The notes under the pieces were generated by a model. It saw nothing but the letters and a program-made list of their open reading frames with translations. It made no database searches and was not told where the DNA came from. Of a stretch of DNA of 17,625 bases, positions 1 to 17,625 are shown in pieces (position 1 is the stretch's first letter; every line of letters begins with the position of its first letter). The stretch is from an uncultured archaeon (lineage in GTDB: Archaea > Altiarchaeota > Altiarchaeia > IMC4 > SCGC-AAA252-I15), in NCBI GenBank assembly GCA_902384455.1, contig CABMCB010000005.1:1-17625 (forward strand), read 5' to 3'. Made by a program: the position numbers and the translations under genes.

Positions 1-1596
1 TGGGAGGTTTTCGGGGAGGTTGGAGTAGTCTTCTTCTGTTATGGGTAGTGCGGTGTAGCTTGTGGGAGGGTTGCCTATTATCCCAACAGACAGGTCTTTT
101 CCTGTCAGGAATTCTTCCACCAGAACAGGTTTGTCGTAGCCGAGTTTTTCCCTGATTTCCATTATGGCGTCCAAAAGCTCTTCGGCGTTGTTGACGACGC
201 TTCTCTGGGTTATCCCGAAGCTGTTGTCGCCGAAGTTAGGTTTGACGAGAGCGGGAAAATCAAAAGGCAGTTCGAAAGTAGTGTCCTCCGGGTTGATGAA
301 AAAAGCTTCAGGAACAGGAATGCCCATCTCGCTGGACACTCCTCTGACAAGAGACTTATCGTAGCAGTGCGCAAGGCACTGCGGCCCTCCGCCCGAGTAC
401 GGCATGCTAAGCGCCTCAAGCATGGCAGGCACATGAAGCTCCTTGCGCGGGTCGTTAGTGTAGCCCTCGTCGCAAAGATTCAAAACGTAGTCCACGCTGC
501 CCTTCAGCTTAATCAAATCCGAAAGAAGCGTGTCGTGGTTGTTGAGGTACTCGAACTGATAGCCTGGAAGCTCTCTCAGCGCGGTCTTAAGCTGGTCTAT
601 AGTGAAAAAGTCGTCGTCGTCAAACACAGAAGTCGGCTTCAAAGCATCCAGCTTATTGGGATCGCCCATGACAACAGCGACCTTCTTCACGCACTCCTTC
701 TGCCTGCGCTTCAAAGGCGTCCAATCCTTCCGCACAACAGCATACGCAGTAATACGCCGTTCAGACGCGCCGTTCACCTGAGATTTCACGCCGCCTGTCG
801 CAGTGTTTTCGTGTATCGCGCAATCGGAAAGTCCGGCGGCCTTCATCAGGTCGGTGAGGTTGTCTTTGGTGTACAGCCGTTCGGCGTAGAATTGGTCTGA
901 AATGAGGCCTTTTTCCACGTGTGATACTACGTCTCTTGTTATCAGCAGGTGTCCGTCTATTGATAGCGAGCGTTCACGGCAGACGAAGTGTTTGTTGTCT
1001 ATCCATTCCCACGTTTTGGGTTGGTAGTGTTCTTTCAGGTGTTCTCCATCTGATATGTCAAGTATGAGCCTGCCCCACGGCTTAAGCACCCGGTGCATTT
1101 CTTTGAGGATTCTTAGGCCGTCTTGGGCTGTTTCGAAGTAGCTGAAGCTGTTGCCCAACAGCAGCACGGCGTCGAATGTATCGGGGGCATAGGGGAGTTT
1201 TCTTGCGTCGCCTTCCCTGAATTTGACGTTCAGTTTTTCTTTTTTGGCTGTTCCTTTGGCTTTTTGGATTAGGTGGTGTGAGCGGTCGAACCCTTCCACC
1301 TGGCTGTATCCTCGTCGGGCTAGTTCAAGAGAGTGTCTGCCGTATCCGCAGCATAAGTCTAGTATTTTGTCGTCTGGGCTTATTCTTGCGGTTTGCGCGA
1401 ACGCGTCTATTTCCCTTCGGGTTATCGCCTGTTCTTCGGCGCTGTCTGCGTCCGTTTTGATGTATGTTTTGCTGAATATTCTCCTCCAGCATTCAGGCAG
1501 GACGTGTTCTTCCAGGTTGTGCACGGGACCGAGCGTCTTCTTTGTTTGCCTTCCGTTTTTCCTTTGGTTTTTGTCTGGGATCGGTCTTTCGTTCAT
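1..1596 (-). CDS. Class I SAM-dependent methyltransferase fused to a D-Ala-D-Ala-ligase-like ATP-grasp domain (3' end beyond window)
   Basis: Not in the ORF track. Manual translation from ATG at 1596 is open to base 1 (532 codons): MNERPIPDKNQ... The N-terminal part has SAM motif I ILDLCCGYGRHSLELARRG, plus EGFDRS, FREGDARKLPY, FDAVLLLGNSF and VLKPWGRLILD. The C-terminal part has Ddl-like motifs VLNLCDEG, LEALSMPYSG, YDKSL, FPALVKPNFGDNSFGI and VLVEEFLTGKDLSVGIIG. Confidence 0.9.
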   Translation of the reverse strand, partial: MNERPIPDKNQRKNGRQTKKTLGPVHNLEEHVLPECWRRIFSKTYIKTDADSAEEQAITRREIDAFAQTARISPDDKILDLCCGYGRHSLELARRGYSQVEGFDRSHHLIQKAKGTAKKEKLNVKFREGDARKLPYAPDTFDAVLLLGNSFSYFETAQDGLRILKEMHRVLKPWGRLILDISDGEHLKEHYQPKTWEWIDNKHFVCRERSLSIDGHLLITRDVVSHVEKGLISDQFYAERLYTKDNLTDLMKAAGLSDCAIHENTATGGVKSQVNGASERRITAYAVVRKDWTPLKRRQKECVKKVAVVMGDPNKLDALKPTSVFDDDDFFTIDQLKTALRELPGYQFEYLNNHDTLLSDLIKLKGSVDYVLNLCDEGYTNDPRKELHVPAMLEALSMPYSGGGPQCLAHCYDKSLVRGVSSEMGIPVPEAFFINPEDTTFELPFDFPALVKPNFGDNSFGITQRSVVNNAEELLDAIMEIREKLGYDKPVLVEEFLTGKDLSVGIIGNPPTSYTALPITEEDYSNLPENLP

Positions 1597-1665
1597 TTTA
1601 TATGCTAAGGCAGAGTTCGAGTGCTGTTAGAGAAATTAGCCTCACGGCAGCGGCAGTCAGAAAGC

Positions 1666-1745
1666 GGGTGATGCCTATCGGTTGCTTTCGCGTTTTTTTT
1701 GGTAAATCTGGGCTTTACCATACAGGGCACAGTAAAGCATCACCC
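1666..1745. repeat. Nested inverted repeats (structured intergenic element)
   Basis: GGGTGATGC (1666-1674) / GCATCACCC (1737-1745) is a perfect 9-bp pair. TGGTAAA (1700-1706) / TTTACCA (1714-1720) is a perfect 7-bp pair. GCTTTAC (1712-1718) / GTAAAGC (1732-1738) is an alternative 7-bp pair. Confidence 0.6.
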
Positions 1746-1799
1746 CCATGTTTAGTTATGCTCGTCTCCTCATAAATACTCTCTCCTAATTCAGTCAGA

Positions 1800-2471
1800 A
1801 TGAAGTCCGATTTCATAGTGGCGTTCGACCTTGACGGCGTCATACTCAACAGCAAGACTGCTTATGTGACGGCCTTCAGGAATTTTATGACGTCTTGCGG
1901 CCACGTGCGTTCCGAGGCGGATGTTCTGTCCGTCATAGGTCCTCCTGCGCAGGATGTTTTGCGGAGTCTTTTCCCTGCAGGAGAACCTGACGTTGAGCGT
2001 AAGGTGCGGGAGGGTGATGCGGCTGTTGATTTGTTTGCGTTGTCTTCTGGGGGTCAAGGTCTTGTTGTTGCGGTGCCTGGTGCGGCGGATGTTTTGCGGG
2101 AAGTTAGAAAGTTGGGTTGTGTTACTGCGGTTGTCACCAACAGCAAGCGGAACTTCATTGACGCGACGTTTCCTCGTTTCGGGTTGTCCGGTCTTTTCGA
2201 CAGGGTTCTTCCGGTCGGTGAGGGTCCTAAGGAGGTGCGTCTTAGGCTGCTTTTGAGTGAGTACGGCGTTTCGTCTGAGAGGATGTTTTACGTCGGGGAT
2301 TTGAAGAGGGACGCTGACGTTGCCCGCGCGGTGGGCGCTGTTTCTGTGATTGTTTACAATGAGTACAGTTGGCTTTACCCTAACGAGGATAAGGTTCCGG
2401 GTATAGGCGCCGATTATGTCGTAAGCAGTCTTTCTGGGATTCTACCATTACTTGAAGAAGCTGTACACTAA
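1800..2471 (+). CDS. HAD-superfamily hydrolase (phosphoglycolate-phosphatase-like, subfamily IA)
   Basis: Motif I FDLDGVI, motif II VVTNS, motif III Lys (GPKE), motif IV YVGDLKRD. TATA-like ATAAATA at about 1772-1778. Confidence 0.88.
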   Translation: MKSDFIVAFDLDGVILNSKTAYVTAFRNFMTSCGHVRSEADVLSVIGPPAQDVLRSLFPAGEPDVERKVREGDAAVDLFALSSGGQGLVVAVPGAADVLREVRKLGCVTAVVTNSKRNFIDATFPRFGLSGLFDRVLPVGEGPKEVRLRLLLSEYGVSSERMFYVGDLKRDADVARAVGAVSVIVYNEYSWLYPNEDKVPGIGADYVVSSLSGILPLLEEAVH

Positions 2472-2825: not shown

Positions 2826-3634
2826 TTTTTCTTTTTGAGGTAATCCACTAAACTCTGAAACACAGCGAACCCGTCGCCTAATCCGTCGGGGTTTCCGGTG
2901 CGCGTCCAATCAGCGTGCTGAATCCTGGAAACAACACGCTCAGGATGAGGCATCATACCAAGAACATTCCCCTCCGGATTACATATGCCCGCAATATCAT
3001 CCAAACTCCCATTAGGATTCCACGGGAACCCCCCAGCAGCCGCGCCATCCGGCATACAATACCTAAACACAACCTGCCCATTCTCACTAAGCAACTTAAG
3101 AGCTTCCTTACTCCTACCCCCAAACTCAAGACGCCCCTCCCCATGAGCCACAGGAACCTGAATAACAGAACCCCTCTGAAAGCGGCCGGTGAAAGCGCAG
3201 TTTCCATCGAGCCGCAAATAAGTCGGGCGGCATTCGAACCTATTCTGCATGTTTATGGAAAGCACAGCGTCCGGGACGTCGGTGATGCCTTTGAACGCCG
3301 GAAGCATTCCCGCTTCAACAAGAACCTGGAAACCGTTGCATATGCCGCCGACAGGTCGGCCGTCTTTAACGAATTCTTTGAGTTCCGGCAGTAACCTGCT
3401 TTTGATTCGCGCGGCGAAAATCGCTCCTGCTCTTATGTAGTCTCCTGCGCTCCATCCGCCCGGAATCATCAGCACCGAGTAGTCTGATAGGCGGCGTCTT
3501 CGCTCCGGGGGGCAGTCGCCTGTGAACTGTTTAAGGTGGACTTTTTCGGCGGACAGTCCTGCTTTAGTTAGCGCGTGCCACATCTCCTCTTCGCAGTTGG
3601 TTCCTTCTATGAGGAGTACGGCGGCATCTGTCAT
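2822..3634 (-). CDS. purQ: Phosphoribosylformylglycinamidine synthase subunit PurQ (glutaminase)
   Basis: GTNCEEE, IPGGWSAGDY, catalytic GICNGFQ, VAHGEG, NPNGS, GMMPHPER (His-Glu). Confidence 0.96.
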   Translation of the reverse strand: MTDAAVLLIEGTNCEEEMWHALTKAGLSAEKVHLKQFTGDCPPERRRRLSDYSVLMIPGGWSAGDYIRAGAIFAARIKSRLLPELKEFVKDGRPVGGICNGFQVLVEAGMLPAFKGITDVPDAVLSINMQNRFECRPTYLRLDGNCAFTGRFQRGSVIQVPVAHGEGRLEFGGRSKEALKLLSENGQVVFRYCMPDGAAAGGFPWNPNGSLDDIAGICNPEGNVLGMMPHPERVVSRIQHADWTRTGNPDGLGDGFAVFQSLVDYLKKKK

Positions 3635-3719: not shown

Positions 3720-4811
3720 ATGCCTAAGAAGTCTATTCGGCTTGCGATAGTGGGTGTCGGAAACTGCGCAAGCAGCTTAATCCAGGGTCTCACTTACTAC
3801 AAGGACGTTAACGGCAACAGCCCTCCGGTTCCGGGCCTCATGCACAATATCCTCGGTGGCTATCACATACGCGACATAACTCCTGTTGCAGCATTCGACG
3901 TGGACAAAAACAAGGTGGGGAAAGATTTGGCTGACGCTATTTTCGCTGCGCCAAACTGCACGGTGAAGTTCAGCGACGTGCCTAAAACAAACGTCATAGT
4001 GCAGAAAGGCCCTGTCCTTGACGGAGTGGGCTCCACCACTAAAGATGCCTTCCCTGTGGACGCGCGCCAGAAGCCAGTCGACGTTTCAAAAGCGCTTAAG
4101 GACGCAAAAGCCGAAGTGCTCGTCTGCTACCTACCGGTCGGAAGCGAAGAAGCAGTCCGCTACTACGCCCAATGCGCATTGAACGCGGGATGCGCCTTCG
4201 TAAACGCCATACCCGTATTCATATCAAGCAACCCCGAGTGGGCCAAGAAATTCGAGGATAAAAAACTCCCCGTAGTCGGAGACGACATCAAAAGCCAGGT
4301 AGGCGCCACAATAGTCCACCGAACCCTCACAAAACTCTTCGTAGACCGCGGAGTAAAACTCGACAGCACATACCAGCTCAACGTCGGAGGAAACACAGAC
4401 TTCATGAACATGCTGGAGAGAACCCGGCTCAAAAGCAAAAAAATAAGCAAAACACAAAGCGTACAAAGCCAGCTACCAACGCAACTCCCGCCAGAAGACA
4501 TACACATAGGCCCAAGCGACTACATCCCCTGGATAAAAGACAAAAAAATCTGTTTCATAAGGATGGAAGGCCGCAAGTTCGGCGACGTTCCCATAAACAT
4601 AGAACTCCGCTTGGACGTGGAAGACAGCCCCAACAGCGCCGGCGTCATGGTTGACGCCATACGGTGCGCAAAGCTCGCTCTTGACCGCGGCGTCGGAGGC
4701 GCACTCACGTCGCCGTCAAGCTACTTCATGAAGAGCCCTCCCATACAGTACAGCGACTCAGTAGCTCGGCAGATGGTCGAGGAATTCATAAGCGGAGCAA
4801 GACAACGCTGA
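3720..4811 (+). CDS. ino1: Myo-inositol-1-phosphate synthase (prokaryotic type)
   Basis: [11 protein letters not shown] Rossmann start, [48 protein letters not shown]. Confidence 0.96.
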
Positions 4812-4815
4812 AAAA

Positions 4816-5436
4816 ATGATAAAGTCCCGCGTCAACACGGAATGGGCAAGCGTCAGGCTGGGCATAATATTCTCCCACATAGGTCTATCCCCCAACTCAT
4901 GGACCCTACTCTCGATAGTGCCCTCTGTTGCCGGATTCATACTCCTCGTGAAAGGAAACCTTCTGGCCTCCCTTGTTTGTTTCCTTGTTGCGGGGCTTTT
5001 GGATGCGGTTGACGGCGCAGTCGCAAGGGTGACGGGTGCGGTGACTAAATACGGCGGATTCCTTGACGGAATAGTTGACCGTTACGTTGAGATTCTTCTG
5101 TACTTAGGTTTGGGATTCAACCTGGCGGGACAGGAAACGCCGTTTATGCCTCTTTATGCGTGGCTTGTTTTGCTCGTGTTCGGCGCCACGATGACAAGTT
5201 ACGTGCGCGCCTACGCCGACCACAGACGCGTCGTGACAGACGCAGAAGACCACAAGAAAATGGGCGGCCTATTTGAGCGCGGAGAGCGGATGACCTTAAT
5301 CTATTTAGGTCTTTTTGCCGGTGCGTTCGACCCCCGTTACATCGTATATTCGATAGTTGCAGCCGCTGTTTTGTCAAACTTCACAGTTCTTCAGCGCATC
5401 GTTTATGTGCGCAAAAAAGCCGGCGGAAGCGTCTAA
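4816..5436 (+). CDS. CDP-alcohol phosphatidyltransferase, probably archaetidylinositol-phosphate synthase
   Basis: Signature LDAVDGAVAR...GGFLDGIVDR, SPNSWT helix, SYVRA and GLFERGER, multiple TM helices. It starts 4 nt after ino1. The substrate is inferred from gene context. Confidence 0.88.
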   Translation: MIKSRVNTEWASVRLGIIFSHIGLSPNSWTLLSIVPSVAGFILLVKGNLLASLVCFLVAGLLDAVDGAVARVTGAVTKYGGFLDGIVDRYVEILLYLGLGFNLAGQETPFMPLYAWLVLLVFGATMTSYVRAYADHRRVVTDAEDHKKMGGLFERGERMTLIYLGLFAGAFDPRYIVYSIVAAAVLSNFTVLQRIVYVRKKAGGSV

Positions 5437-5817: not shown

Positions 5818-6782
5818 CGGACAAAGACCTGAAAGAGACGCTCGAAACCTACCGAAAGCAGATTCAAGCTAAAGACAAGAAAATAAAGGACATCAAGAAG
5901 CAGCTCATCGTCTACCAAAAAGAAGCCGGGGACTTGCGCATCAAAAGAGACCAGCTTAACGCCCAAGTCAAAGAGATGTCCACGCAAGCCAAAGTCTTCA
6001 GAGAATCCCGCGACCAGCTAAACGCCAAGGCCGCAGAACTACGCAAGAAACGGAAGGATCTTCTTGACGAAATAAAGAACTTGGGCGGAAACATAAAGGA
6101 AAGCAAGACCAAGCGGGATGAACTCAACAAGAAGGCAAAAGGAAGCGACGACCAGCTTGAGCGCCTGTTCGAGAGAAACCTCAACACCTTAGTTCTGAAG
6201 GACATACCTCTCACCAAAGAAATCCAGCTTTACGAGCAGGTTTGCGAAGTCATGGGGCGCATGGGCTCGGCCAAAGAAGCGTCCCAACTGCATAAAGCAG
6301 TAGTCTCATCGTTCCAAAACATTCAAGGCTTAAACGGCAAGCTTGATGCGATATCCAAGGAGTTGCATGAAGTCGCAGATGAAGCCAACCTAAACCACCA
6401 GTCCGCTCTCGACTTGTACACTAAGGCCGACGCGGTGCGTAAGGAGGCGGATGGCATCCACAAGCAGCTTATTGAGCGTTATGAGGTCATGAATCCTTAT
6501 CGCGAGCAGATTAATGCGCTTCTTGGCGAGATTGACGTGATTAGGCAGGAGATGGCGCCGTTCCAGGATGAGTCTGACAAGCTTCGTACTGATCGCGAGA
6601 ATGAGAGGAAGATGATGACTGCTCAGGAAGTTAAGGAGAAGCTTGCGCAGAAGAAGCGCGTCAGCTTGGATGACTTCCGCATATTGTTGGAGCAGGAAGG
6701 CATGCCTCTTGGCGATGAAAAGCAGGAGAAGGACGCAGAGTCGAAGAAGTCCGAGTCTCCCGCCGAAGAAAAGTCAGAATGA
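5814..6782 (+). CDS. Archaeal coiled-coil protein (COG1340-like)
   Basis: Repeated RDQLN/RDQLN/RDELN heptad motifs, long K/E-rich coiled coil, C-terminal KEKLAQKKRVSLDDF. ATGA overlaps on both sides. The family call is from recollection, not a search. Confidence 0.75.
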   Translation: MTDKDLKETLETYRKQIQAKDKKIKDIKKQLIVYQKEAGDLRIKRDQLNAQVKEMSTQAKVFRESRDQLNAKAAELRKKRKDLLDEIKNLGGNIKESKTKRDELNKKAKGSDDQLERLFERNLNTLVLKDIPLTKEIQLYEQVCEVMGRMGSAKEASQLHKAVVSSFQNIQGLNGKLDAISKELHEVADEANLNHQSALDLYTKADAVRKEADGIHKQLIERYEVMNPYREQINALLGEIDVIRQEMAPFQDESDKLRTDRENERKMMTAQEVKEKLAQKKRVSLDDFRILLEQEGMPLGDEKQEKDAESKKSESPAEEKSE

Positions 6783-7708
6783 GGGTCGCCGTCGTAGGCG
6801 CAGGGGCTGTTGGAGGATATTTCGGTTCCCAATTTTTGCGCGCAGGATTCGACGTAGATTTCTACGCGCGCGGAAAGCATCTTGAAGCATTAAGGCGGCA
6901 TGGTCTTGTGCTCCTTGAAGGCGGCAAGAAAACCCTATTCAAAGTCAAGGCGTACGACAAGCCGCCTAAAGACGCTGTAGCCGACCTGATACTTTTCACA
7001 GTAAAAGGATACAACACGGATTCCGCGCTGAAGAAATATCGCTCCGTCGCGTCTCCCTCCTCAATCGTTTTAAGCCTCCAGAACGGATTCGGAAACCGCG
7101 AAAAAATAGCCAACAAATGGGGTCATCCAGAACGCATCGTGCCTGCCATGACCCGCATAGGCGTCGAAGTCACACACCCCGGAACCATAACATACAGCGG
7201 ACTAGGCATCATATACTTCGGCGCCGAAACACCCAAACAAAAGAAAGCCGCCGAAACAATCAAGCAAATTCTTGAGGCCGCAGAAATATCTTTTTCTTTT
7301 GAGCGCGATATTCGCCGTATACTTTGGCGCAAGTTTATGTGGAACGTAGCGTTCAATACGGTTTCTGCGGTTACGGAGTCCACCATGGGGGAGATGCTTT
7401 CAGACCCTGCGGTACGGCGTCTTCTTGAGGATGTGACTAAGGAGGCGGCTGCGGTTGGGCGTGCGGAAGGAGTCAAAATAACCGACGCGGACGTTTTGGG
7501 CGTTGTAGGTCCGCGCCCCAAGTTCTCGGCATTCAGGACGAGCATGCTCCAAGATTACCTTGCCGGAAAACCCCTCGAAACAGAGACATTAAGCGGTGCA
7601 TTAATCCGGAAAGCAAGAGCGCGCAAAATATCCGCACCCAAAACTGAGGCATTGCACGCTATACTAACCCACAAAACAGCTCTCCGCAAGGGTTCGTCAA
7701 GCCGCTAA
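6779..7708 (+). CDS. panE: 2-dehydropantoate (ketopantoate) 2-reductase
   Basis: VVGAGAVGGYFG, FTVKGY, SLQNG, WRKFMWN (catalytic Lys), TSMLQD, PLETE. Confidence 0.9.
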   Translation: MRVAVVGAGAVGGYFGSQFLRAGFDVDFYARGKHLEALRRHGLVLLEGGKKTLFKVKAYDKPPKDAVADLILFTVKGYNTDSALKKYRSVASPSSIVLSLQNGFGNREKIANKWGHPERIVPAMTRIGVEVTHPGTITYSGLGIIYFGAETPKQKKAAETIKQILEAAEISFSFERDIRRILWRKFMWNVAFNTVSAVTESTMGEMLSDPAVRRLLEDVTKEAAAVGRAEGVKITDADVLGVVGPRPKFSAFRTSMLQDYLAGKPLETETLSGALIRKARARKISAPKTEALHAILTHKTALRKGSSSR

Positions 7709-10342: not shown

Positions 10343-11278
10343 ATGGCCTACGAGGTTTTGCTTGCCGGCGTGGACGTTACGCCGCAATTTGAGATAGCTA
10401 AAAACGCGCTTTTGAATTACATCGTTATCGCGCTGTCGTTTCTGATACTGTTCCTTTTCGGTTATTTCATCGGCGCAGTAATAGCAAGCGTCCTAAAGCG
10501 CGTGCTCACAGTGTCGGACCTTGAGAAGTCGCTTGTCCAATACGGGGCGGTAACAAGCAAGACGTGGGGCTCAATAATCCAGTTCGTAGCCACATACGTC
10601 AAATGGTACTTGACAGTCGGAGTACTCACAATACTAAACATCCAAGTCCTACTGTGGGTATTCCAGTTCCTAAGCAGCCTATTCTGGTTCATAATGCTGT
10701 CGATACTGGGCATACTCGCAGGCGGAGTATTCTACAAGCTGGTGAGAGAATTCCTAATCGACATCGGCCTGGAGGAACACCTCAAAAAACACAACCTAGC
10801 AGGAGCATTCGGAGGAATGTCTCTCCTCGGAATACTCGCAAGCATAGCCAAATGGTACATAACCCTCATATTCGTCTCCACCGGCATAGAACAACTGCTG
10901 CCTGGCCGCCCCGGAGAAGTGCCTCCAGCATTAGTCCTCTTCGTCAGGCAGCTGATGAACTACGTGCCCCACGCAATACTGGGAACACTCGTGCTTCTTG
11001 CCGCGATGCTTCTGGCCAGATTCTCAGCGGAAAACATCCGCCGCCGAAACATGGAAGCAGGCGGCATAATAGCAGGATGCACAGAAATAATGATAATGTT
11101 CTTCGGCATAGTGCTCGCACTACCCAAATACGGGGTGGAAGACGTCTCAGTGCTAACCGACTCATTCAAACTGCTCACCCTCGGAATAAGCCTGGGGCTA
11201 GGCCTAGCGTTGGGTCTTGGACTCAAGGATGCCGTAGCGATAGTGAGCAAAAACCACGTCGCCAAGAAAACAAAGTAA
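10343..11278 (+). CDS. TM_helix-repeat (CmpX/MscS-associated) multi-pass membrane protein without the MscS cytoplasmic domain
   Basis: Internal repeats (...IASVLKRVL..DLEKSL...VKWYL vs ...FYKLVREFL..GLEEHL...AKWYI) and an MscS-TM3-like ending LGLALGLGLKD. Confidence 0.72.
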   Translation: MAYEVLLAGVDVTPQFEIAKNALLNYIVIALSFLILFLFGYFIGAVIASVLKRVLTVSDLEKSLVQYGAVTSKTWGSIIQFVATYVKWYLTVGVLTILNIQVLLWVFQFLSSLFWFIMLSILGILAGGVFYKLVREFLIDIGLEEHLKKHNLAGAFGGMSLLGILASIAKWYITLIFVSTGIEQLLPGRPGEVPPALVLFVRQLMNYVPHAILGTLVLLAAMLLARFSAENIRRRNMEAGGIIAGCTEIMIMFFGIVLALPKYGVEDVSVLTDSFKLLTLGISLGLGLALGLGLKDAVAIVSKNHVAKKTK

Positions 11279-11342
11279 TAGGGCCGGCTAACTTAAACAT
11301 CCCCTCTTAAAACCAGTCCTTGAAAATAACATAGTAGAGACG

Positions 11343-11894
11343 ATGAAACTCTCGCTCCCAAACTACTGGACCCTCTTCGAAGTCGCCGTCTTAGCAGTCA
11401 TCATAATCACGGCAATACACACACTGCCAGGAATCCTCCCTCAAACAATCACCTTCGGTATAGCCCTATTCCTTCTTGTCGGCCTCGCAGCAGGCGCGAC
11501 GTTCGCGTACATGCTCCACCACCAATACACAACAGAAACGCTAATACAGCTCCACCCCAACGAACACATAATACTGGAGAAAGGCGACGACATAAACGGC
11601 GTATACGTGATGCCAAGAGGGCCGGACGGCAAACCCCACAGCAGATTCCCAGCAACACGCGCCAAAATATACCTGACTAACCTGGGCATCATCACAGAAC
11701 AACCAGGAAGCGGAATAATAACGTTCTTCATACCCCTGTTCGCAATACGCCACATAGGCCACGAAGGAAACTACCTGATAATACAGTCCTTCGACGCAGA
11801 CGACGAATTCATACAGCTCGACCTCCTCACAGGCCCAGACACAGAAATCTGGTTCCAGAACGTGATGAAAGCGGTAGCCCAAACAACCGCCTGA
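11343..11894 (+). CDS. Hypothetical membrane protein: 2 N-terminal TM helices plus a possible PH/GRAM-like domain
   Basis: Two hydrophobic helices, then LHPNEHIILE, KIYLTNLGII, IPLFAI and a C-terminal WFQNV helix, a pattern typical of prokaryotic PH-like folds (inference). Confidence 0.68.
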   Translation: MKLSLPNYWTLFEVAVLAVIIITAIHTLPGILPQTITFGIALFLLVGLAAGATFAYMLHHQYTTETLIQLHPNEHIILEKGDDINGVYVMPRGPDGKPHSRFPATRAKIYLTNLGIITEQPGSGIITFFIPLFAIRHIGHEGNYLIIQSFDADDEFIQLDLLTGPDTEIWFQNVMKAVAQTTA

Positions 11895-11931
11895 GCTTTT
11901 ATTGCGAGAAACGAAAGTCCTATATTTCTCG

Positions 11932-13356
11932 ATGAAACAACAGCAGACACAACAAAGGAAAGACGACTTCTTCAACGACCTCACAGAATTCTCAAAAAAA
12001 ATACTGGCGGAAAAAGAAGTCCTCGTAATAGGCCACCACGACTGCGACGGCATCACCGCGACAGCCATAGCAGTAGACTTCCTTAGGTGGGGGAACGTCA
12101 AAGCAGACTTCATGAGCATAAAGCAACTCGACAACCACGCAATGCAAAAAATAAGCCACCTAACCAACAGCACACTACTATTCGTCGACCTCGGAAGCGG
12201 CCAACTACCCGCGCTCGAAGAGGCCGGATTCACAAACTTCTACGTCATAGACCACCATCCGCCAGAACGCCCCGACGACCCACGCCAAATCAACCCCCAC
12301 CCCTACGGATTCGACGGCGGATTCGAAGTCTCAGGCGCAGGAATGGTGTACCTGGTAGCCCGCCAGGCAGGCCGCCGTGAAATGGCGCACGCCGCAGTAG
12401 TGGGGGCGGTAGGAGACATGCAGGACTCCGGCGGAAAACTCCACAGCCTAAACCGCCTGATACTCGACGACGCAATAGAACAAGGAACCATAGCAGTCAA
12501 ACACGACCTACGGCTGTTCGGAAGGCAAAGCCGCTCACTGCCACAGATGCTCGCATACAGCAACGACCCCTTCCTACCCCACCTAACCGGAAACCCATCC
12601 GCATGCGAAGCATTCCTAAAAGAAATCGGCGTGAACACACGCCAGAACGGAACCACAAAATCCTACGTCGACCTCACACACCAAGAAAAAGAACACCTCA
12701 CAACCCAACTATACATAAACCTGCTCGACGCAGGCACACCAGAATTCCTAATACAAAGAATGGTCGGAGAAGTATACACACTACTCAAAGAACCCCTCCA
12801 CTCAGAACTACGCGACGCACAAGAATACAGCACAGTACTAAACGCATGCGGCCGCCACGAAAACGCGGAAACAGGCGTCGCAGTGGTATTGGGCGACAGG
12901 CAAAGCAAATGGGCGGAAGCAAAAAACATGCTGAACTACCACCGCGAAATGCTAAAACAAGGCATAGACTTCGTAACCCAAAACGGAGCGGAAACACACC
13001 CACACCTCTACTTCTTCAACGGAACAGGCAAAATCTCGGAAAACATAATCGGCATAGTCGCAGGCATGGCATACGGAGCACGCGTAATCAAAACAGACAA
13101 ACCAGTGCTAGCACTAGCCGAAGACAAAGACGACCTAAACTCATACAAAATAAGCGCCAGAGCCACATGGGACCTAGTACACCGCGGAATACACCTCGGA
13201 GACGCAATGAGAAACTGCTCCCGCCAACTCGGAGGCGAAGGAGGCGGCCACGACATAGCAGCTGGAGCCCGAGTACCCAAAGAGCAACTTCAAAAGTTCA
13301 TAGAACTAGTGGACGACACATTCAAGCAGCAACGTGAAAACAAAAACCAAGCATAA
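11932..13356 (+). CDS. recJ: RecJ-like DHH/DHHA1 phosphoesterase (GAN / Cdc45-RecJ family)
   Basis: HHDCDG, FVDLGSG, IDHH, GAVGDMQ, central insertion RLFGRQSR...DPFLPHLTG, LNACGR, ISAR, GGGHDIAAGA. ATG 11932 preferred over TTG 11902. Confidence 0.92.
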   Translation: MKQQQTQQRKDDFFNDLTEFSKKILAEKEVLVIGHHDCDGITATAIAVDFLRWGNVKADFMSIKQLDNHAMQKISHLTNSTLLFVDLGSGQLPALEEAGFTNFYVIDHHPPERPDDPRQINPHPYGFDGGFEVSGAGMVYLVARQAGRREMAHAAVVGAVGDMQDSGGKLHSLNRLILDDAIEQGTIAVKHDLRLFGRQSRSLPQMLAYSNDPFLPHLTGNPSACEAFLKEIGVNTRQNGTTKSYVDLTHQEKEHLTTQLYINLLDAGTPEFLIQRMVGEVYTLLKEPLHSELRDAQEYSTVLNACGRHENAETGVAVVLGDRQSKWAEAKNMLNYHREMLKQGIDFVTQNGAETHPHLYFFNGTGKISENIIGIVAGMAYGARVIKTDKPVLALAEDKDDLNSYKISARATWDLVHRGIHLGDAMRNCSRQLGGEGGGHDIAAGARVPKEQLQKFIELVDDTFKQQRENKNQA

Positions 13357-13402
13357 AACCCTCCGACAATATTTTTCCGTCCGCCCACCATTAATCCCTA
13401 CA

Positions 13403-14317
13403 ATGAAGATTCTAAACGCCGCCCTCCTGCTCGTCCTCATAGCGTCCTCAGTCAACGCGGTAGACATATCCATATTCGACGACCTGACAAGCAACGCGCT
13501 ACTTACGGAAAACATCACTCTCACATTCACCCCGGCGGAAAATACATACTCCTTCCACATACCAGACGGCGTCCAAGACGTATCCGCATACGGCGGCAGC
13601 ATAACAAACAACACATTCACACCAGACAACAAAACATGCGGATCACCCTGCATAGCAACAATCTCCTACACGCAAACCGACGCCCTAGAAAGCATACCAA
13701 ACAACAGAAAACGAGTAAACCGAATATACCTGTTTCCCGCAGAAGTAAGAAACTTCACTGTAACAATAGCACTACCACCCGAATACGTCCTGGACGCACC
13801 ATCAAGATCATACGCCATAGTCCCCCCCGCATCAACCCTCTCAACAGACGGCACCAGAACCTACATCACATGGACAAGCCAAAACCCACAACTGCCCCGC
13901 GCATACATACTACTACTATCCAAAATCAATAACCACGACGAAGACGGCCTTCAAAGCCTAACGTCAGAACTACTCGAATGGCAAACATACGCAGTAAGCG
14001 CAGTATTCGCCTGCTTCGGCTTCATCGCAGGACTCCTATACAACAAACGCAAGAAAAAAGAAGAAGGCACAACAATAGAATCAATACCCGACTCAGTGCT
14101 CACCCCCGACGAAAAAACAATAGTAACGACATTAGAAGAAAGCGGCCGCATAAACCAGAAGGAGATAGCGCGTAAGACGGGTTACTCTAAGGCTAAGGTT
14201 TCGGCTGTTGTGGCTAATCTTGAGGGCAAGAGGGTGGTTGAGCGGGAGCGTGCCGGGCGGTCTTACATCGTGCAGATGGCTAAGAAAGTAGTTAAAGAAC
14301 GGCGTAAACAGCATTAA
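13403..14317 (+). CDS. Membrane-anchored winged-HTH protein (signal peptide, extracellular beta domain, TM helix, cytoplasmic wHTH; COG2512-like)
   Basis: Signal peptide MKILNAALLLVLIASSVNA, beta-rich ectodomain with N-x-S/T sequons and a CGSPC pair, TM YAVSAVFACFGFIAGLLY followed by NKRKKK, then wHTH LTPDEKTIV...INQKEIARKTGYSKAKVSAVVANLEGKRVVERERAGR. Confidence 0.85.
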   Translation: MKILNAALLLVLIASSVNAVDISIFDDLTSNALLTENITLTFTPAENTYSFHIPDGVQDVSAYGGSITNNTFTPDNKTCGSPCIATISYTQTDALESIPNNRKRVNRIYLFPAEVRNFTVTIALPPEYVLDAPSRSYAIVPPASTLSTDGTRTYITWTSQNPQLPRAYILLLSKINNHDEDGLQSLTSELLEWQTYAVSAVFACFGFIAGLLYNKRKKKEEGTTIESIPDSVLTPDEKTIVTTLEESGRINQKEIARKTGYSKAKVSAVVANLEGKRVVERERAGRSYIVQMAKKVVKERRKQH

Positions 14318-14357
14318 TTCAGCCTTTAAATGTGTTTTTTCTATTTAAACGCAATTC

Positions 14358-14494
14358 TGAACCGTCGTGAACCTTAATAACCTGTTTTGTTATCAAAAAG
14401 GCCTTCTTTCAGTTGTAAGTTGGAATGGTTTGTGTAAAGAATTAAATACTCCCCTTCACGCATTCAAATTCCAGTTCGCTTCAATTCAAGCGAA
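14358..14494 (+). promoter_or_regulatory. Promoter with candidate operator sites upstream of the secreted-protein/apbE operon
   Basis: TGAACC direct repeats at 14358 and 14368 (TAACC at 14378). TATA-like ATTAAATA at 14441-14448 with a purine-rich BRE-like sequence before it. Perfect inverted repeat TTCGCTT-N6-AAGCGAA at 14475-14494. Confidence 0.5.
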
Positions 14495-14505
14495 TCCAAT
14501 AAAAA

Positions 14506-15216
14506 ATGACAAACAAAAAAAGGATTGGAAAATTACTCATACTCCTAATGATTTTCGGGCTGGCGTTGTCTCAGATAGCTGCCGCAGAAGGAGATGATTA
14601 CACCGAAAGAGAACAAGCGAACGAAAACAGCTTGCTAATAGAACCGAATTCAACCGATCAATCGCAAGACGGTTATACGCATAATGCGACAGAACAAAGA
14701 GTCAATGAGCATGAAACGGAAGAAGAGGACGACTACACATACGTCAAACCCAACCCATCGCAGGACCCTAACGCAGACGACGACCACGACGGAGTATCAA
14801 ACAGATACGACCTCTACCCCGGCTACGACGACGGCCACTTCACAGGTGTGGACGACGATGACACAGATTACTCAAACAGAACCATCATAGAAAATTCCAG
14901 TAAACAAAGAGAAAACAATTCCTCCGGCAAAAACGAAACATCCGACGCAGAAGACATAAAAGAAGGCACTCATCCGGCAGAAAACCGAACAGCGGAAAAA
15001 AACACACCTCCCCTAGAAAGCCAAACAACAGAAGATCAAATCCCGTTGACAGAAAATCCAGTAAGCAAAGAAGAAACAACAACCCCCTCAGTCATAAACC
15101 CCACAGACACACAGAACACGACGGCATCCCAGACTGAAGCAAACGCAGACGGAAACACAAACACCCCCGCCCCAGCAACAAATGATAACACCCCCACCAC
15201 CAGCCAGCAACAATAG
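14506..15216 (+). CDS. Secreted acidic low-complexity protein with a TSP3-like Ca-binding motif; the frame continues past TAG 15214-15216 to 15393
   Basis: Signal peptide MTNKKRIGKLLILLMIFGLALSQIAAA, motif DPNADDDHDGVSNRYDLYP, D/E/T/N-rich sequence, nine N-x-S/T sequons. Confidence 0.8.
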   Translation: MTNKKRIGKLLILLMIFGLALSQIAAAEGDDYTEREQANENSLLIEPNSTDQSQDGYTHNATEQRVNEHETEEEDDYTYVKPNPSQDPNADDDHDGVSNRYDLYPGYDDGHFTGVDDDDTDYSNRTIIENSSKQRENNSSGKNETSDAEDIKEGTHPAENRTAEKNTPPLESQTTEDQIPLTENPVSKEETTTPSVINPTDTQNTTASQTEANADGNTNTPAPATNDNTPTTSQQQ

Positions 15217-15393
15217 CCAGACCAAACGCCTCAAAAAGAACATAAGACCCAAACAACCATTTCAACGCCAAACGACGCACAACCAGAAACAACCCCCCCC
15301 CCAAATAACCATCAAACCTCCGCCCTAAACACACTGCTACGCTACTTAGGCCAAATGCTAGAACTATTCGGATTCAAAACCAACCCTGCATAG
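15217..15393 (+). pseudogene. In-frame C-terminal continuation of the secreted protein beyond an amber codon
   Basis: 58 sense codons (PDQTPQKEHKTQTTISTPNDAQPETTPPPNNHQTSALNTLLRYLGQMLELFGFKTNPA) end at TAG 15391-15393, 4 nt before the apbE ATG. Confidence 0.7.
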
Positions 15394-15397
15394 GAAA

Positions 15398-16261
15398 ATG
15401 GACTACGACATATCGCAAACAACGCACCTAATGGGCGGAGACCTACGCATAACAATAACCTCACCGCACCCGCAGAAAGCATTACAAGCGATAAACGCCG
15501 CATTCCAAGAAGCAAAGCGACTCGAAGGCATTTTCAGCGTCTACGACCCCCAAAGCGAACTATCCCGCCTAAACAAAGAACGCACGCTGACCGTAAGCAA
15601 AGACCTCCGCACAGTACTATGGCGAGCCCGATGGCACGCGGAAATATCGGGCGGACTGTTCAACCCAGCAATAGGAAACGAAATAATAGCGGCAAAAAAC
15701 TACATACAAAACGGCGGAACACCACCTCATAAACCCATCCACGACGGACACTACCGGAAAATAAAATTCGACGGCAAAACAGTCTCATTAGGACACGCCC
15801 CATACACAATAGACCTGGGAGGAATAGCCAAAGGATACATAGTAGACAAACTCGTAGAAACCCTCAAAAAAGAAGGAACAAAACAAGGCATAGTCGACGC
15901 CCGAGGAGACATACGCGTCTTCGGACCACGCCCCATAAAAATCCAGGTGGAAGACCCGCAAGACTCCAAAAAAAGCAAGCACACATTCATGCTGAAAGAC
16001 GCCGCAGTCGCAACATCCGGCAACTACCGGCAACACAGAGAAAAAACCGGCCACATAATAAACCCATTCAACACCCCCCCTCAAATACTTTCCGCATCAG
16101 TCATCAAAGAAACATGCGCCGACGCAGACGCACTAACCAAAACCATATTCAACCTACCGCTGGCAAAAGCAATATCCGCGATCAACCACGGAGTCATAAT
16201 AGCATCCGACGGAAAAGTACACGCAAAAGGCATAGCAGCCGCGACCACGGAGGCGGCGTAA
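15398..16261 (+). CDS. apbE: FAD:protein FMN transferase (ApbE family), no signal peptide
   Basis: HLMGG, FSVYDPQSELSRLN, GLFNPAIG, IDLGGIAKGYIVD, GDIR, VATSGNY, HIINP, ADALT. Confidence 0.95.
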   Translation: MDYDISQTTHLMGGDLRITITSPHPQKALQAINAAFQEAKRLEGIFSVYDPQSELSRLNKERTLTVSKDLRTVLWRARWHAEISGGLFNPAIGNEIIAAKNYIQNGGTPPHKPIHDGHYRKIKFDGKTVSLGHAPYTIDLGGIAKGYIVDKLVETLKKEGTKQGIVDARGDIRVFGPRPIKIQVEDPQDSKKSKHTFMLKDAAVATSGNYRQHREKTGHIINPFNTPPQILSASVIKETCADADALTKTIFNLPLAKAISAINHGVIIASDGKVHAKGIAAATTEAA

Positions 16262-17097
16262 TGAACCTCCCGGAAAAAATCCTGTTGTCCATAGCAATCA
16301 CGACATCCCTGCTACTAATCTACTTCACCCTATACATGACGTCAGACACACCATACGTCTGGTACTTCACCCGAGCCACAGGACTTCTAGCCGCAGCACT
16401 CCTCACAACCTCCATCTTCACAAGCATAATAAAAAAAACATTCAAAACCAACGCGCCACAAAAACTACTCCACCTCCACAAATGGACATCGATAGGCGCA
16501 CTAATCACAGTATTCCTACACGGCACCTCAGTAATATTCGACCACTACCAATGGAAACTCGGCATAACAAACGTCCTCGGCCTTGATTACCACAACCGGT
16601 GGGTGGCGCTGGTGTCTGCAGGAAGCATCGCTTTCTATCTAATGGTGATAGTCGCGCTAACATCCATCACGCCATCAATGATGCGCAGGGTGGGCGTAAA
16701 ATGGCGGCTGATCCATTACGCAAGCTATGTAGTGTTTTTGCTGGGCTACATTCATTCGGTCAACCTGGGGACTGACGTGCGGCATTCGTTCTTTTCGGTC
16801 ATGGTTTTGCCCGCCTTCCAGGCGACTTTCTTAGCGTTTATAGTGCTGTTCATAACACGCATAGTAAAGACGAATTCGATTTTTCAAACCAACTTGGATA
16901 CGGCGGCGTTCGCCATAGTATTGGGGCTAATACTCTTTACTTTGCTGTCTGCCTTGCTGACGTCAGTTGAAACACTGCAGATGACAGACAGCTTACGGCA
17001 GAACATCACGGAAGTATCGCAGAACATGGCTTCTTTGCAACAGGAAGGGGATGTGCTATCTCGCGTCGTATCAGCAATCACCGGGGGCGCAAAATGA
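16261..17097 (+). CDS. Ferric-reductase-like / MsrQ-like heme-b transmembrane protein with a C-terminal TM and coiled-coil extension
   Basis: ATG 16261 overlaps the apbE TAA and follows GGAGG. Motifs WYFTRATG, LHLHKW, FLHG, ALTS, WRLIHYASY...YIHS (four heme-ligand His positions). About 7-8 TM helices. Confidence 0.88.
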   Translation: MNLPEKILLSIAITTSLLLIYFTLYMTSDTPYVWYFTRATGLLAAALLTTSIFTSIIKKTFKTNAPQKLLHLHKWTSIGALITVFLHGTSVIFDHYQWKLGITNVLGLDYHNRWVALVSAGSIAFYLMVIVALTSITPSMMRRVGVKWRLIHYASYVVFLLGYIHSVNLGTDVRHSFFSVMVLPAFQATFLAFIVLFITRIVKTNSIFQTNLDTAAFAIVLGLILFTLLSALLTSVETLQMTDSLRQNITEVSQNMASLQQEGDVLSRVVSAITGGAK

Positions 17098-17625
17098 ACG
17101 TTCAGAAAATAATTCTCGCAGGATTCATGACGATGCTTCTTGGCGTAAGCATTTTCTCATGGGCTTATGCTGCGTATGTGCAAGAGCAGACGAAAGAGGT
17201 TCGAACCCAGCTTTCAGACATGCAAAACCAGTATCAGCGCCTAGCCCTCACAACAGAATTATTGAAGCGGCAGAAACAGGACCTCCTAAGCATAATTAAC
17301 CAAACACGCGTACAAAACGGCGGCTCACAAAAAGGAATTCCTGCCTTAGACCCACTGTTAGCAGACGACCCCCCTGCCGCAGACCCCGCAATAACAGATG
17401 ACCCACCGGCGACAGACCCTTCAACAGCAAATGACCCCACAACCACATCCATAACCAATACAGATCCGACAACGCCCACAACATTAAAGACGACCTCAAC
17501 TACAACCCCCAAATCAACAACCACAAAAACCACAAAATCGACAACCACAACAAGCTTGAAGGCAACCACTACTTTACCCTCCCCAACCACGACCACCACT
17601 TTAGCGTCCGCCCCCACAACCACCA
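17094..17625 (+). CDS. Membrane-anchored protein with coiled coil and Asp/Pro/Thr-rich stalk (3' end beyond window)
   Basis: Not in the ORF track. ATGA overlap with the previous gene. Translation: MNVQKIILAGFMTMLLGVSIFSWAYAAY-VQEQTKEVRTQLSDMQNQYQRLALTTELLKRQKQDLLSII...DPPAADP...TTSTTTPKSTTTKTT..., open to the window end. Confidence 0.85.
   Translation, partial: MNVQKIILAGFMTMLLGVSIFSWAYAAYVQEQTKEVRTQLSDMQNQYQRLALTTELLKRQKQDLLSIINQTRVQNGGSQKGIPALDPLLADDPPAADPAITDDPPATDPSTANDPTTTSITNTDPTTPTTLKTTSTTTPKSTTTKTTKSTTTTSLKATTTLPSPTTTTTLASAPTTT
17349..17447 (+). repeat. Three degenerate 33-nt (11-aa) coding tandem repeats
   Basis: DPLLADDPPAA / DPAITDDPPAT / DPSTANDPTTT. Confidence 0.65.

Follow-up and report, generated by a model that had tools for sequence, protein, structure and literature searches.

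Replication leaves strand-compositional asymmetry in bacterial chromosomes, as GC and TA skews between origin and terminus, and in mammalian N-domains, whose sawtooth skew jumps upward at origins. The stretch of Altiarchaeota DNA analyzed here (17,625 nt in total; the window) and its genome (G000) carry a pattern of similar shape: an excess of G+T on one strand over A+C on the other, involving both GC and TA skew, arises in a sharp upward jump and then falls gradually. It differs from replication skew in that (i) its scale is 0.1-4 kb, as against 10^5-10^6 bp, (ii) its start points number in the thousands, every one of them a word of four letters, (iii) the word differs by genus, and a non-palindromic word is one-sided, and (iv) silent sites are near saturation. 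Somatic hypermutation, with its error-prone patch repair after targeted deamination, and MutH, which directs mismatch repair by a nick at GATC, resemble it in a one-strand entry point, the resynthesis of hundreds of bases (which in the archaeon would be part of the proposed mechanism) and strand-biased mutations as a by-product; here, however, the footprint spans the whole genome and belongs to evolutionary time, the two transitions contribute equally, and searches for AID/APOBEC-type or MutH-type genes found none. Primases of phage T7 and the bacterial DnaG enzymes are sequence-specific. NEQ395 of Nanoarchaeum equitans is described as sequence-specific as well (PMC10250227). Such primases parallel the archaeal case in that a short template word, varying by lineage, sets the start of synthesis, but the primase here is of the ordinary two-subunit type and its word specificity is only a candidate property. 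No description of a mutational footprint of primer sites was found in the literature searched.

A compositional likeness exists to GRINS. The accessible portion of the source (PMC8256042) reports strong, correlated GC and TA skews, which change abruptly within 1 kb and are maximal at third codon positions, together with an amino-acid shift (Gly/Val versus Pro/Thr); its authors put forward error-prone replication on the keto/amino axis, without a known mechanism. GRINS are defined there as repeats (>80% identity, >500 bp) within bacterial gene clusters, with a link to gene conversion. The archaeal blocks share the abrupt skews, the third-position peak and a shift in amino-acid use (Val versus Thr/Ile/Asn), but they are single-copy and genome-wide, and they are anchored at a short word with fixed polarity, which is absent from that portion of the GRINS description (PMC8256042).

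At third codon positions of the window, the fraction of G/T on the + strand (K3) alternates between approximately 0-10% and 80-95% in blocks of 0.1-3.5 kb, which flip within genes and on both coding strands. The blocks were segmented with a 3-state HMM on third positions (Table 1). Keto skew (G+T-A-C) ranges from -0.66 to +0.56 in 100-nt bins, and GC and AT skews are opposite in sign within blocks (-0.52 and +0.45, respectively, in 9601-9900). In the RFC large-subunit-like gene (RFC-L), K3 is 0.00-0.08 across 9459-9908 and 0.56 beyond, while codon positions 1 and 2 hold approximately 0.4-0.6 G/T, the signal being confined to position 3.

Table 1. Composition blocks and GGCC anchors of the window. 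Paired K3 values of anchors compare 40 third positions to the left and to the right of GGCC.
Feature	Position	Strand	Observation
GGCC anchor	838..841	.	neutral -> G/T-rich; K3 0.38 -> 0.80; HMM UP edge 9 nt off
G/T-rich block in minus-strand methyltransferase/ATP-grasp gene	850..1480	+	HMM K state, K3 0.80-0.85, 6-codon break
GGCC opening HAD-gene G/T-rich block	1899..1902	.	keto jump +0.28; HMM UP edge 38 nt off
G/T-rich block, plus-strand HAD hydrolase gene	1940..2402	+	K3 0.79; coding strand G/T-rich
A/C-rich block in minus-strand PurQ, terminates at GGCC 3184	2903..3179	+	K3 0.08
GGCC anchor	3184..3187	.	K3 0.05 -> 0.53; HMM UP edge 5 nt off
A/C-rich block in myo-inositol-1-phosphate synthase gene	4103..4646	+	K3 0.15
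GGCC within the 4103..4646 block	4509 and 4569		raw keto jump +0.35 at 4569
GGCC anchor	6425..6428	.	K3 0.38 -> 0.80
G/T-rich block	6464..6656	+	K3 0.88
A/C-rich block in PanE gene, terminates at GGCC 7276	7153..7261	+	K3 0.03
GGCC anchor, bias on both flanks	7276..7279	.	K3 0.10 -> 0.70
G/T-rich block	7357..7465	+	K3 0.86
GGCC anchor	8456..8459	.	K3 0.38 -> 0.82
G/T-rich block in minus-strand 2-hydroxyacid dehydrogenase gene	8486..8672	+	K3 0.89
A/C-rich block in minus-strand RFC-L gene (coding strand G/T-ending, 83-codon run)	9426..9939	+	K3 0.05
GGCC anchor, right end of RFC-L block	9889..9892	.	K3 0.00 -> 0.42
Long A/C-rich domain spanning four plus-strand genes, short interruptions	10747..14155	+	third-position K3 and HMM
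GGCC inside the 10747..14155 domain	10904, 11201, 11832, 12031, 12370, 12850, 13246		each a brief rightward upward blip only
GGCC anchor (gcGGCCgc), strongest switch of the window	14144..14147	.	K3 0.07 -> 0.80; HMM edge 11 nt off
G/T-rich block	14158..14284	+	K3 0.86
A/C-rich domain, terminates at GGCC 16579	14730..16581	+	K3 0.09-0.14
GGCC anchor	16579..16582	.	K3 0.20 -> 0.60; HMM edge 2 nt off

The block pattern in silent codon letters is real and not due to chance. Against 1000 within-gene synonymous-codon shuffles, with the variance between 25-codon blocks as the statistic, no shuffle was as high as the observed value in 11 of the 17 window genes, and at most one was in 13; block variance was not significant for orf183, ApbE and orf177 (1000 shuffles each). 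The longest run of G/T-ending codons in RFC-L compares with 15.6±3.4 in shuffles, of which 0/1000 reach 83. Separately, orf183 and ApbE were seen to be A/C-ending throughout.

The first-pass annotation had described these alternating blocks, with about 80 consecutive G/T-ending codons in RFC-L, as independent of gene boundaries and orientation, and as neither ordinary codon bias nor single-origin skew. Most of this holds: the synonymous-codon null is rejected, gene borders are ignored by flips in mid-gene, and residual autocorrelation is gone within ~10 kb (skew domains are 1-10 kb long). Nor is amino-acid composition the cause, since the bias sits at third positions. The HMM recovered most of the blocks listed, and three are weak or different: two described as G/T-rich (4960-5180 and 16600-16960) show almost no third-position bias, while that from 17380 to the end is indeed A/C-rich, but owes this chiefly to codon positions 1 and 2 in the gene of a low-complexity protein rich in Thr and Pro. 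Independence from orientation is partial, since both coding senses are affected but A/C-rich coding strands are in 4:1 surplus genome-wide (of 21,429 30-codon windows, 2485 have a coding-strand K3≤0.15 and only 588 a K3≥0.85).

The switch points were also checked for a shared motif, and upward edges share GGCC while downward edges are without it. In the window, 13/24 upward (A/C to G/T) HMM edges lie ≤30 nt from GGCC (18.3% expected; P=8e-5), versus 3/26 downward (G/T to A/C) edges. An unbiased scan of the keto jump at every 4-mer in the whole 2.41-Mb genome gave a mean of +0.069 for GGCC (n=8428) and +0.018 for the runner-up words, all of which overlap GGCC; no 4-mer had a marked negative jump, and GGCC is the sole 4-mer with this property genome-wide. 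As z values of the scan are inflated by overlapping windows, the case is built on rank and replication. Genome-wide, 45-53% of sharp upward switches occur within 20 nt of GGCC, versus 15% of random points and 0-5% of sharp downward switches. There are 404 sharp upward and 231 sharp downward switches, hence a sawtooth; the blocks do not switch freely, as first proposed, but form a polar series. Mean K3 across GGCC rises from 0.441 to 0.524, reaches a plateau by ~18 nt and decays over ~500 nt, with a profile symmetric with respect to coding orientation. GGCC is missing from the vicinity of about one in two sharp upward switches. A model with equal weight per GGCC accounts for r2=0.057 of 300-nt K3 variance, gene orientation for 0.133 and both for 0.189, and most of the placement and strength of the blocks lies outside it.

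The effect extends over the whole genome: keto skew has an SD of 0.192 in 200-nt windows (n=12,011), compared with 0.122 for purine skew and 0.071 for the binomial expectation. At third positions, the SD of purine content is an ordinary 0.054 and that of K3 is 0.158, so the process acts along the transition axis. Both transitions move equally: T/(T+C) from 0.354 to 0.437 and G/(G+A) from 0.524 to 0.609.

Related Altiarchaeota of the same order show the sawtooth at other 4-letter words, each with a replication in fresh sequence: GCGC, GATC and the non-palindromic GAGC. GCGC leads all 256 words in G008 (+0.103, n=1017). Three leading words led again in fresh sequence of the same genome, namely GAGC/GCTC in G015 (37 kb, then 133 kb), GGCC in G016 (80 kb, then 144 kb) and GATC in G022 (60 kb, then 400 kb). 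Congeners share the word (G007 is led by GAGC and G026 by GATC), two words thus being common to members of one genus each; in all, seven genomes have the pattern, with four different words, all of the form G-N-N-C. These anchors are not avoided (O/E 0.75, 0.85, 1.02 and 0.87); six genomes, G000 among them, do strongly avoid GATC (O/E 0.14-0.29), and there it shows no jump. GAGC acts one-sidedly: the word-bearing strand is G/T-rich 3' of the word, with a keto skew at 1945 half-sites of +0.042 downstream and -0.006 upstream, which rules out both a plain double-strand break at the word and recombinational import. The bias sets in ≤6 nt from the word in G008 and G015/G007; its decay length is 150-500 nt, and word density is ~1 per 250-285 nt. 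The footprint is thus polar, and its anchor words change between lineages.

The local strand-specific mutational process linked to repair or replication that the first-pass annotation had suggested remains the best fit. In the form that we favor, with roughly even confidence, a nick or primer at the word would serve, on a defined strand, as the starting point of DNA synthesis that is not mismatch-corrected. The blocks would be an inherited footprint of transitions, in which G and T accumulate on one strand (C>T, A>G) and A and C on its partner. Once launched from this nick or primer, which would be specific to the site, the process would proceed 5'->3' away from the word, its bias fading over hundreds of bases; GGCC, being palindromic, would be active on both strands and so leave the + strand A/C-rich leftward and G/T-rich rightward. 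Low-fidelity synthesis evading mismatch correction would let the new strand accumulate G·T wobble mispairs. Spontaneous deamination affects C far more than A; the equal shift of both transitions therefore fits G·T mispairs, and not obviously spontaneous deamination, which suggests mispairs rather than damage as the cause of the bias. NucS/EndoMS, which removes G·T mismatches, is encoded in 24/31 genomes, including 4/5 positives; were it to act on the tracts, A·C errors would be the ones to survive, which would invert the assignment of nascent and template strands. In favor of uncorrected synthesis, canonical MutS was found in only 2/31 genomes; against it, a Y-family polymerase is present in just 2/5 positives, and PrimPol in G000 alone among positives.

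Damage could nevertheless enter through replication. Were priming or excision to take place at the word, the strand on its 3' side would be exposed as single strand for longest, like a lagging-strand template between primers, and would undergo C>U and A>hypoxanthine deamination, the classical mechanism of replication skew at Okazaki scale. We regard this as possible but doubtful. The polarity fits, the word-bearing strand being G/T-rich on its 3' side, as do the decay length, close to word spacing, the G-N-N-C form, from which a copied primer would begin with G, and the mostly A/C-rich coding strands, as if head-on/lagging-template exposure dominated. Adenine, however, deaminates far slower than the equal shift of C/T and A/G sites would demand, and the 1-10 kb skew domains would need very frequent changes of fork direction. 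Sequence-specific priming is documented for a cellular archaeal primase, that of Nanoarchaeum equitans (PMC10250227), but PriS is ordinary here and PriL separate in 4/5 genomes searched, unlike the monomeric sequence-specific type, and a core enzyme would need a new word per genus.

A concrete form of the favored explanation, which we consider rather unlikely, is that an enzyme of restriction-modification type, or one that depends on modification, introduces a nick or excises at the word it recognizes, whether this is methylated, hemimethylated or carries another modification, and long-patch repair rewrites the strand. The words resemble restriction sites and vary by lineage, the asymmetric GAGC works on one strand, and G000 encodes several N4/N6 DNA methylases and an island of a PLD-nuclease/helicase with an Eco57I-type methylase. 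Against this, the anchors are not avoided, whereas GATC is avoided without a jump; G016, which also uses GGCC, lacks a close homologue of the G000 C57 methylase; and congeners have the word in common, so that a short-lived mobile element is not what determines it. The first five sawtooth genomes recognized yielded no C5 methylase. Searches of sawtooth genomes for MutH and R.PabI were also negative, as was that for Vsr in G000, where alone it was sought, and DndC was found in 0/31 genomes.

Transcription, acting via transcription-coupled repair or by leaving the non-template strand exposed, is improbable as the cause of the asymmetry and at best its second component. Gene orientation does contribute a second component, which favors A/C on the coding strand: K3 correlates with orientation (r=-0.41, 1-kb windows), in keeping with the 4:1 surplus, and mean coding-strand K3 is 0.43-0.47 in sawtooth genomes and 0.49-0.54 in most others, although G009, G013 and G020, without a sawtooth, also have 0.44. 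Orientation nonetheless accounts for just 13% of the variance, the word acts symmetrically relative to transcription, and the bias flips within genes and is found in both senses (RFC-L and HAD codons are G/T-ending, those of RecJ A/C-ending). Least probable of all are assembly chimeras, sequencing damage or recombined GGCC-cut foreign DNA: the assembly is a metagenome bin of 103 contigs, but chimeras at switch points are unlikely, as the pattern keeps to third positions with ORFs and domains intact, switches lie inside ORFs whose products align full-length with orthologues, the word marks upward edges only (import would mark both ends), GAGC is one-sided, seven genomes use four words, and 0/75 internal repeat pairs (≥250 bp) involve this contig.

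If, as we favor, error-prone synthesis starts at the word, selection would purge the protein-altering changes, so that silent sites come close to saturating and proteins under weak constraint may shift in composition.

Strand composition in the window switches strongly and block-wise, as the first-pass annotation had described from borders placed by eye: the keto skew (G+T-A-C) ranges from -0.66 to +0.56 across 100-nt bins. The gene of the RFC large-subunit-like AAA protein (RFC-L, minus strand) shows where the signal sits: the G/T fraction of the + strand at third codon positions (K3) is 0.00-0.08 over 9459-9908 and 0.56 from 9909, and at the other two codon positions it remains around 0.4-0.6 throughout. 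The run of about 80 codons ending in G or T that had been noticed in this gene is borne out (83 such codons, vs 15.6±3.4 expected). When synonymous codons were shuffled 1000 times per gene, the observed between-block variance was never reached in 11 of the 17 window genes and was reached by at most one shuffle in 13; three genes were non-significant, two of which (orf183 and ApbE) are A/C-ending all along. The third-position signal and the shuffling result thus rule out amino acid composition as the cause of the blocks, with one exception: the block from 17380 to the contig end is A/C-rich as claimed, in part through positions 1 and 2 of a Thr/Pro-rich low-complexity protein. HMM segmentation on third positions recovered nearly all blocks seen by eye, assigning 36% of these positions to an A/C state, 15% to a G/T state and 49% to a neutral state. 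Genome-wide, keto skew measured in 200-nt windows has a standard deviation (SD) of 0.192, vs 0.122 for the purine skew and 0.071 expected from sampling alone, and K3 has one of 0.155, vs 0.057-0.059 for the corresponding fractions at positions 1 and 2.

The window is a complete contig (C5) of a 2.41-Mb Altiarchaeota bin (G000; 103 contigs, 92% complete), and its gene content is ordinary archaeal housekeeping, including PurQ, myo-inositol-1-phosphate synthase, CDP-alcohol phosphatidyltransferase, PanE, RFC-L, a RecJ/GAN-type DHH protein and ApbE. Orthologues of the RecJ-like protein carry the source label Candidatus Altiarchaeota/Altiarchaeales; the nearest is only 59% identical, and no close relative of the bin was found in the collections searched. 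Stop codons are scarce in the skewed blocks, and shadow ORFs lie over real genes (Table); their translations are nonsense, rich in Arg, Pro, Thr and His. Such stop-poor blocks, with many long shadow ORFs in the genome, are a hazard for gene callers. In both low-complexity proteins of the window the A/C richness extends to codon positions 1 and 2, and their composition may have been shaped by mutational pressure.

Table. Positions of features in the Altiarchaeota bin (contig C5 is the window)
Feature	Position	Strand	Details
GGCC	C5:838		block border at about 860
GGCC	C5:1899		block border at about 1900
GGCC	C5:3184		block border at about 3180
GGCC	C5:4569		block border at about 4560
GGCC	C5:4965		block border at about 4960
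GGCC	C5:6425		block border at about 6430
GGCC	C5:7276		block border at about 7270-7290
GGCC	C5:8456		block border at about 8480
GGCC	C5:9889		block border at about 9900
GGCC	C5:14144		block border at about 14150-14160
GGCC	C5:16579		block border at about 16590-16600
Shadow ORFs (159-248 aa)	C5:10564-11310; 12603-13337; 2915-3394	+	over real genes
Shadow ORF (159-248 aa)	C5:11541-12233	-	over real gene
Fusion protein	C5:1-1596	-	class-I SAM methyltransferase domain fused to D-Ala-D-Ala-ligase-like ATP-grasp C-terminus; ORF leaves contig end
Two low-complexity proteins	C5:14506-15216; 17094-17624	+	secreted-looking, Thr/Asn/Asp/Pro-rich, without Pfam match
Serpin	C18:60192-61529 (L149:2193-3530)	-	full-length, PF00079, E 8e-123, in an archaeal genome
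PrimPol-domain ORFs (675-770 aa)	C10:9488-9919; C59:74143-74619; C69:18786-19205		
MutS domain V match	C92:51260-51610		in 685-aa ORF; among 31 genomes only in G000 and G019
Methylase locus	C71:218054-220400 (L015)		Dam-like methylase fragment, 309-aa ORF and 297-aa PF01555 methylase in a row
Defence-like island	C94:32160-39709 (L151)		1071-aa PLD-nuclease/SF2 helicase; 1069-aa Eco57I/MmeI-type methylase with TaqI-like specificity domain; 363-aa PF01555 methylase

The upward switches (A/C-rich to G/T-rich) share a word. When all 256 tetranucleotides were scanned in G000 with no word presupposed, the mean keto jump at GGCC (+0.069, n=8428) stood far above that of any other word. The next-ranking words, at +0.018, overlap it, no second word came out of scans of 5-mers and 6-mers lacking GGCC, and none of the 256 marks downward switches. 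There are 404 sharp upward and 231 sharp downward switches in this genome; 45-53% of the upward change points lie within 20 nt of GGCC, vs 15% of random points, and 0-5% of the downward ones do. In the window, 13 of the 24 upward HMM edges are within 30 nt of GGCC (18.3% expected, P=8e-5), as are 3 of the 26 downward edges. The first-pass annotation had suggested testing the switch points for a common motif; the upward ones have it, and eleven of the borders placed by eye lie no more than about 25 nt from a GGCC (Table). At the word mean K3 steps up (0.441 before it, 0.524 after it), a rise that fades over about 500 nt, and in the long A/C domain at 10747-14155 a short upward blip lies to the right of every internal GGCC. 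An extended motif, M-GGCC-K, was rejected as a composition confound, since the preference at +1 is no stronger than at +2 to +6.

Equal-weight GGCC positions explain 5.7% of the K3 variance in 300-nt windows, gene orientation 13%, and the two together 19%. K3 is correlated with gene orientation (r=-0.41), A/C-rich coding strands being four times commoner than G/T-rich ones in G000, and the residual domains are 1-10 kb long (residual autocorrelation drops from 0.30 at 5 kb to 0.13 at 10 kb). From the low share of variance explained by GGCC, the orientation correlation and these domains we conclude that an orientation-linked second component exists and that the activity of the sites must be very uneven. 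A transcription-associated asymmetry following the coding strand along the whole gene is excluded, as the bias flips within RFC-L, PurQ, PanE, DUF7343 and others.

DNA was also sampled from 20 related genomes; since overlapping windows inflate the z values of the word scans, weight was placed on the same word ranking first in independent DNA. Most sampled relatives have a keto-skew SD below the purine-skew SD and no anchoring word. An anchor ranked top in four: (i) GCGC in G008, from the family of G000 (n=1017, +0.103; all eight NGCGC/GCGCN 5-mers score alike); (ii) GAGC with its complement GCTC in G015 (37 kb, replicated in fresh 133 kb); (iii) GGCC in G016 (80 kb, replicated in fresh 144 kb); and (iv) GATC in G022, from a different family (60 kb, replicated in fresh 400 kb). 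Congeners with a common word are G007 (GAGC) and G026 (GATC), where it ranked first of 256 in each case, and all four words (GGCC, GCGC, GAGC, GATC) have the form G-N-N-C. The gene-level SD of K3 is extreme in G000 (0.158); G008 and G015 reach 0.10-0.11, and most other genomes lie at 0.02-0.08. In two congeners of G016, G013 (140 kb) and G004 (55 kb), any effect of GGCC is weak at best (z of 1.6 and 2.2), and the signal is absent from the DNA sampled of G029 (415 kb), G009 (112 kb) and G020 (57 kb). Weak effects could be missed in the eleven genomes sampled at 14-20 kb (G001, G002, G007, G010, G011, G012, G021, G024, G026, G027 and G028), of which G007 and G026 turned positive with more DNA.

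The non-palindromic GAGC reveals a polarity: on the word-bearing strand G/T is enriched 3' of the word for about 150-600 nt and the 5' side is flat (1945 half-sites; keto skew +0.042 downstream and -0.006 upstream). Palindromic words accordingly correspond to two back-to-back half-sites. This one-sided action indicates that the event takes place on one particular strand, and it rules out both a simple double-strand-break model and the import of restriction fragments. A primer-length "dead zone" was considered because K3 in G000 reaches its plateau only about 18 nt away from GGCC; it is not general, since in G008 and G015/G007 the bias is already full 6 nt from the word. The broader proposal of the first-pass annotation, a local strand-specific process rather than ordinary codon bias, stands, sharpened to a polar process anchored at a word that varies by lineage. 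The resulting sawtooth is real, strong and unusual, and the different words in relatives are the new part of the finding.

The shift across GGCC is equal at C/T sites (0.083) and A/G sites (0.085), T/(T+C) and G/(G+A) co-vary in 60-codon windows (r=0.63), and third-position purine content is not over-dispersed. In strongly biased windows 4-fold sites are 92% A+C or 92% G+T, and proteins are affected as well: from A/C to G/T windows Val rises from 5.9 to 11.9%, and Thr and Ile fall from 8.7 and 7.9%, respectively, to 3.7%. The equal, co-varying shifts, the near-saturated 4-fold sites and the altered protein composition identify the footprint as that of a strongly biased transition pressure which has acted over a long time and passed through the filter of selection, and not of one hypermutation event. 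That both transitions shift by the same amount speaks for mispairs rather than spontaneous deamination, and it excludes kataegis-like clusters of cytosine deamination in single-stranded DNA, which would produce C>T only. Judging from sequence alone, the same polarity would arise by three routes: the strand that starts at the word may gather G·T mispairs, it may lie exposed as single-stranded template, or its partner strand may gather A·C mispairs. The substitution spectrum of 53 paralogue pairs, too diverged (64-87% identity) for a direction to be read, is coherently skewed for both transitions and class-changing transversions.

Candidate enzymes were sought mainly in the five genomes G000, G008, G015, G016 and G022 (the five positives), and all gene absences rest on bins that are 67-97% complete. 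A monomeric fused PriS-PriL primase of the NEQ395 type was rejected: the PriS ORF of G000 (388 aa) is ordinary, matching the PriS model only, plus an HhH insert, and a separate PriL (PF04104) is present in four of the five genomes searched, namely the four relatives, and was not found in G000. A common engine of the Y-family polymerase or PrimPol type was rejected for its presence in only two and one of the five positives, respectively; the PrimPol ORFs of G000 (Table) are probably primase-helicases of integrated elements, and among the 30 relatives only G005 has this domain. NucS is nearly universal and MutS nearly absent in the order. Phosphorothioation by Dnd systems, whose consensus words (GAAC/GTTC, GGCC, GATC) have the form G-N-N-C, was rejected because none of the 31 genomes gave a dndC match (TIGR03183, E<=0.001). 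Deamination of m5C with Vsr/Mig-type T:G repair was rejected likewise, as no C5 methylase (PF00145) was found in the five positives identified at that point (71-97% complete) and no Vsr (PF03852) in G000, the sole genome searched for it. The MutH family has no match in the five positives; neither has R.PabI, which also has none in any control genome, so that this search says little.

The anchor words are not avoided as classical restriction targets would be: observed/expected ratios (O/E) are 0.75 for GGCC in G000 (0.57-0.91 in relatives), 0.85 for GCGC, 1.02 for GAGC and, in G022, 0.87 for GATC. Six genomes, G000 among them, strongly avoid GATC (O/E 0.14-0.29; 0.14 in G000), and no jump occurs there. 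The methylase locus on contig C71 we take to resemble a DpnII-type GATC restriction-modification cassette, its profile-tested part being the PF01555 methylase only. A methylase on C57 was rejected as the GGCC determinant because G016 has no close homologue, and a "methylase" on C18 because each of the five genomes searched, even the negative G029, has it as a conserved core gene. CTAG is under-represented in several of the relatives (O/E 0.21-0.60), and ACGT in G029 (0.18).

Strand skews serve to locate origins and to infer mutational mechanisms, and are normally weak and chromosome-wide. The sawtooth resembles origin-associated jumps in shape, the G+T skew rising abruptly at a start site (GGCC) and then declining, at a thousand-fold smaller scale: origins number one or a few per replicon with domains of at least 10^5 bp, whereas G000 has 8428 GGCC words and domains of 1-10 kb. 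Word-anchored skew is not described in the literature searched, which offered only GRINS and general work on skews and primases. According to the available portion of their description, GRINS are bacterial repeats (>500 bp, >80% identical to another region) in which GC and TA skews are correlated at third positions and change abruptly, amino acid use shifts, and the mechanism is not explained (PMC8256042). Intense correlated GC and TA skews with a third-position maximum are found in G000 too; however, its blocks are single-copy, and the portion of the GRINS paper available describes no anchoring word (PMC8256042). Self-BLAST of G000 gave 75 repeat pairs of at least 250 bp, none involving contig C5. 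One cellular archaeal primase, NEQ395, provides a precedent for priming at specific sequences, according to the corresponding portion of PMC10250227.

The word-anchored sawtooth is a lead on the unexplained GRINS skews. Also, G000 breaks an assumption of practical relevance: codon-usage, gene-calling and binning tools presuppose homogeneous composition, and this genome has shifted amino acid use and many shadow ORFs. A near-saturated skew tied to a 4-letter word, with fixed polarity and variation by lineage, leads to a testable claim, that of a site-specific start of synthesis or excision in archaea. Tentatively, a priming or nicking activity may be common to the order, always directed to G-N-N-C with the word switched between genera, and uncorrected starts of synthesis, thousands per chromosome, may have brought silent sites near saturation. 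If true, such sequence-specific priming or nicking would constitute a hitherto undescribed DNA-transaction system and hold the mechanistic key to the GRINS-type skews of bacteria and phages, and the genome sequence itself could conceivably be a record of where DNA synthesis starts.
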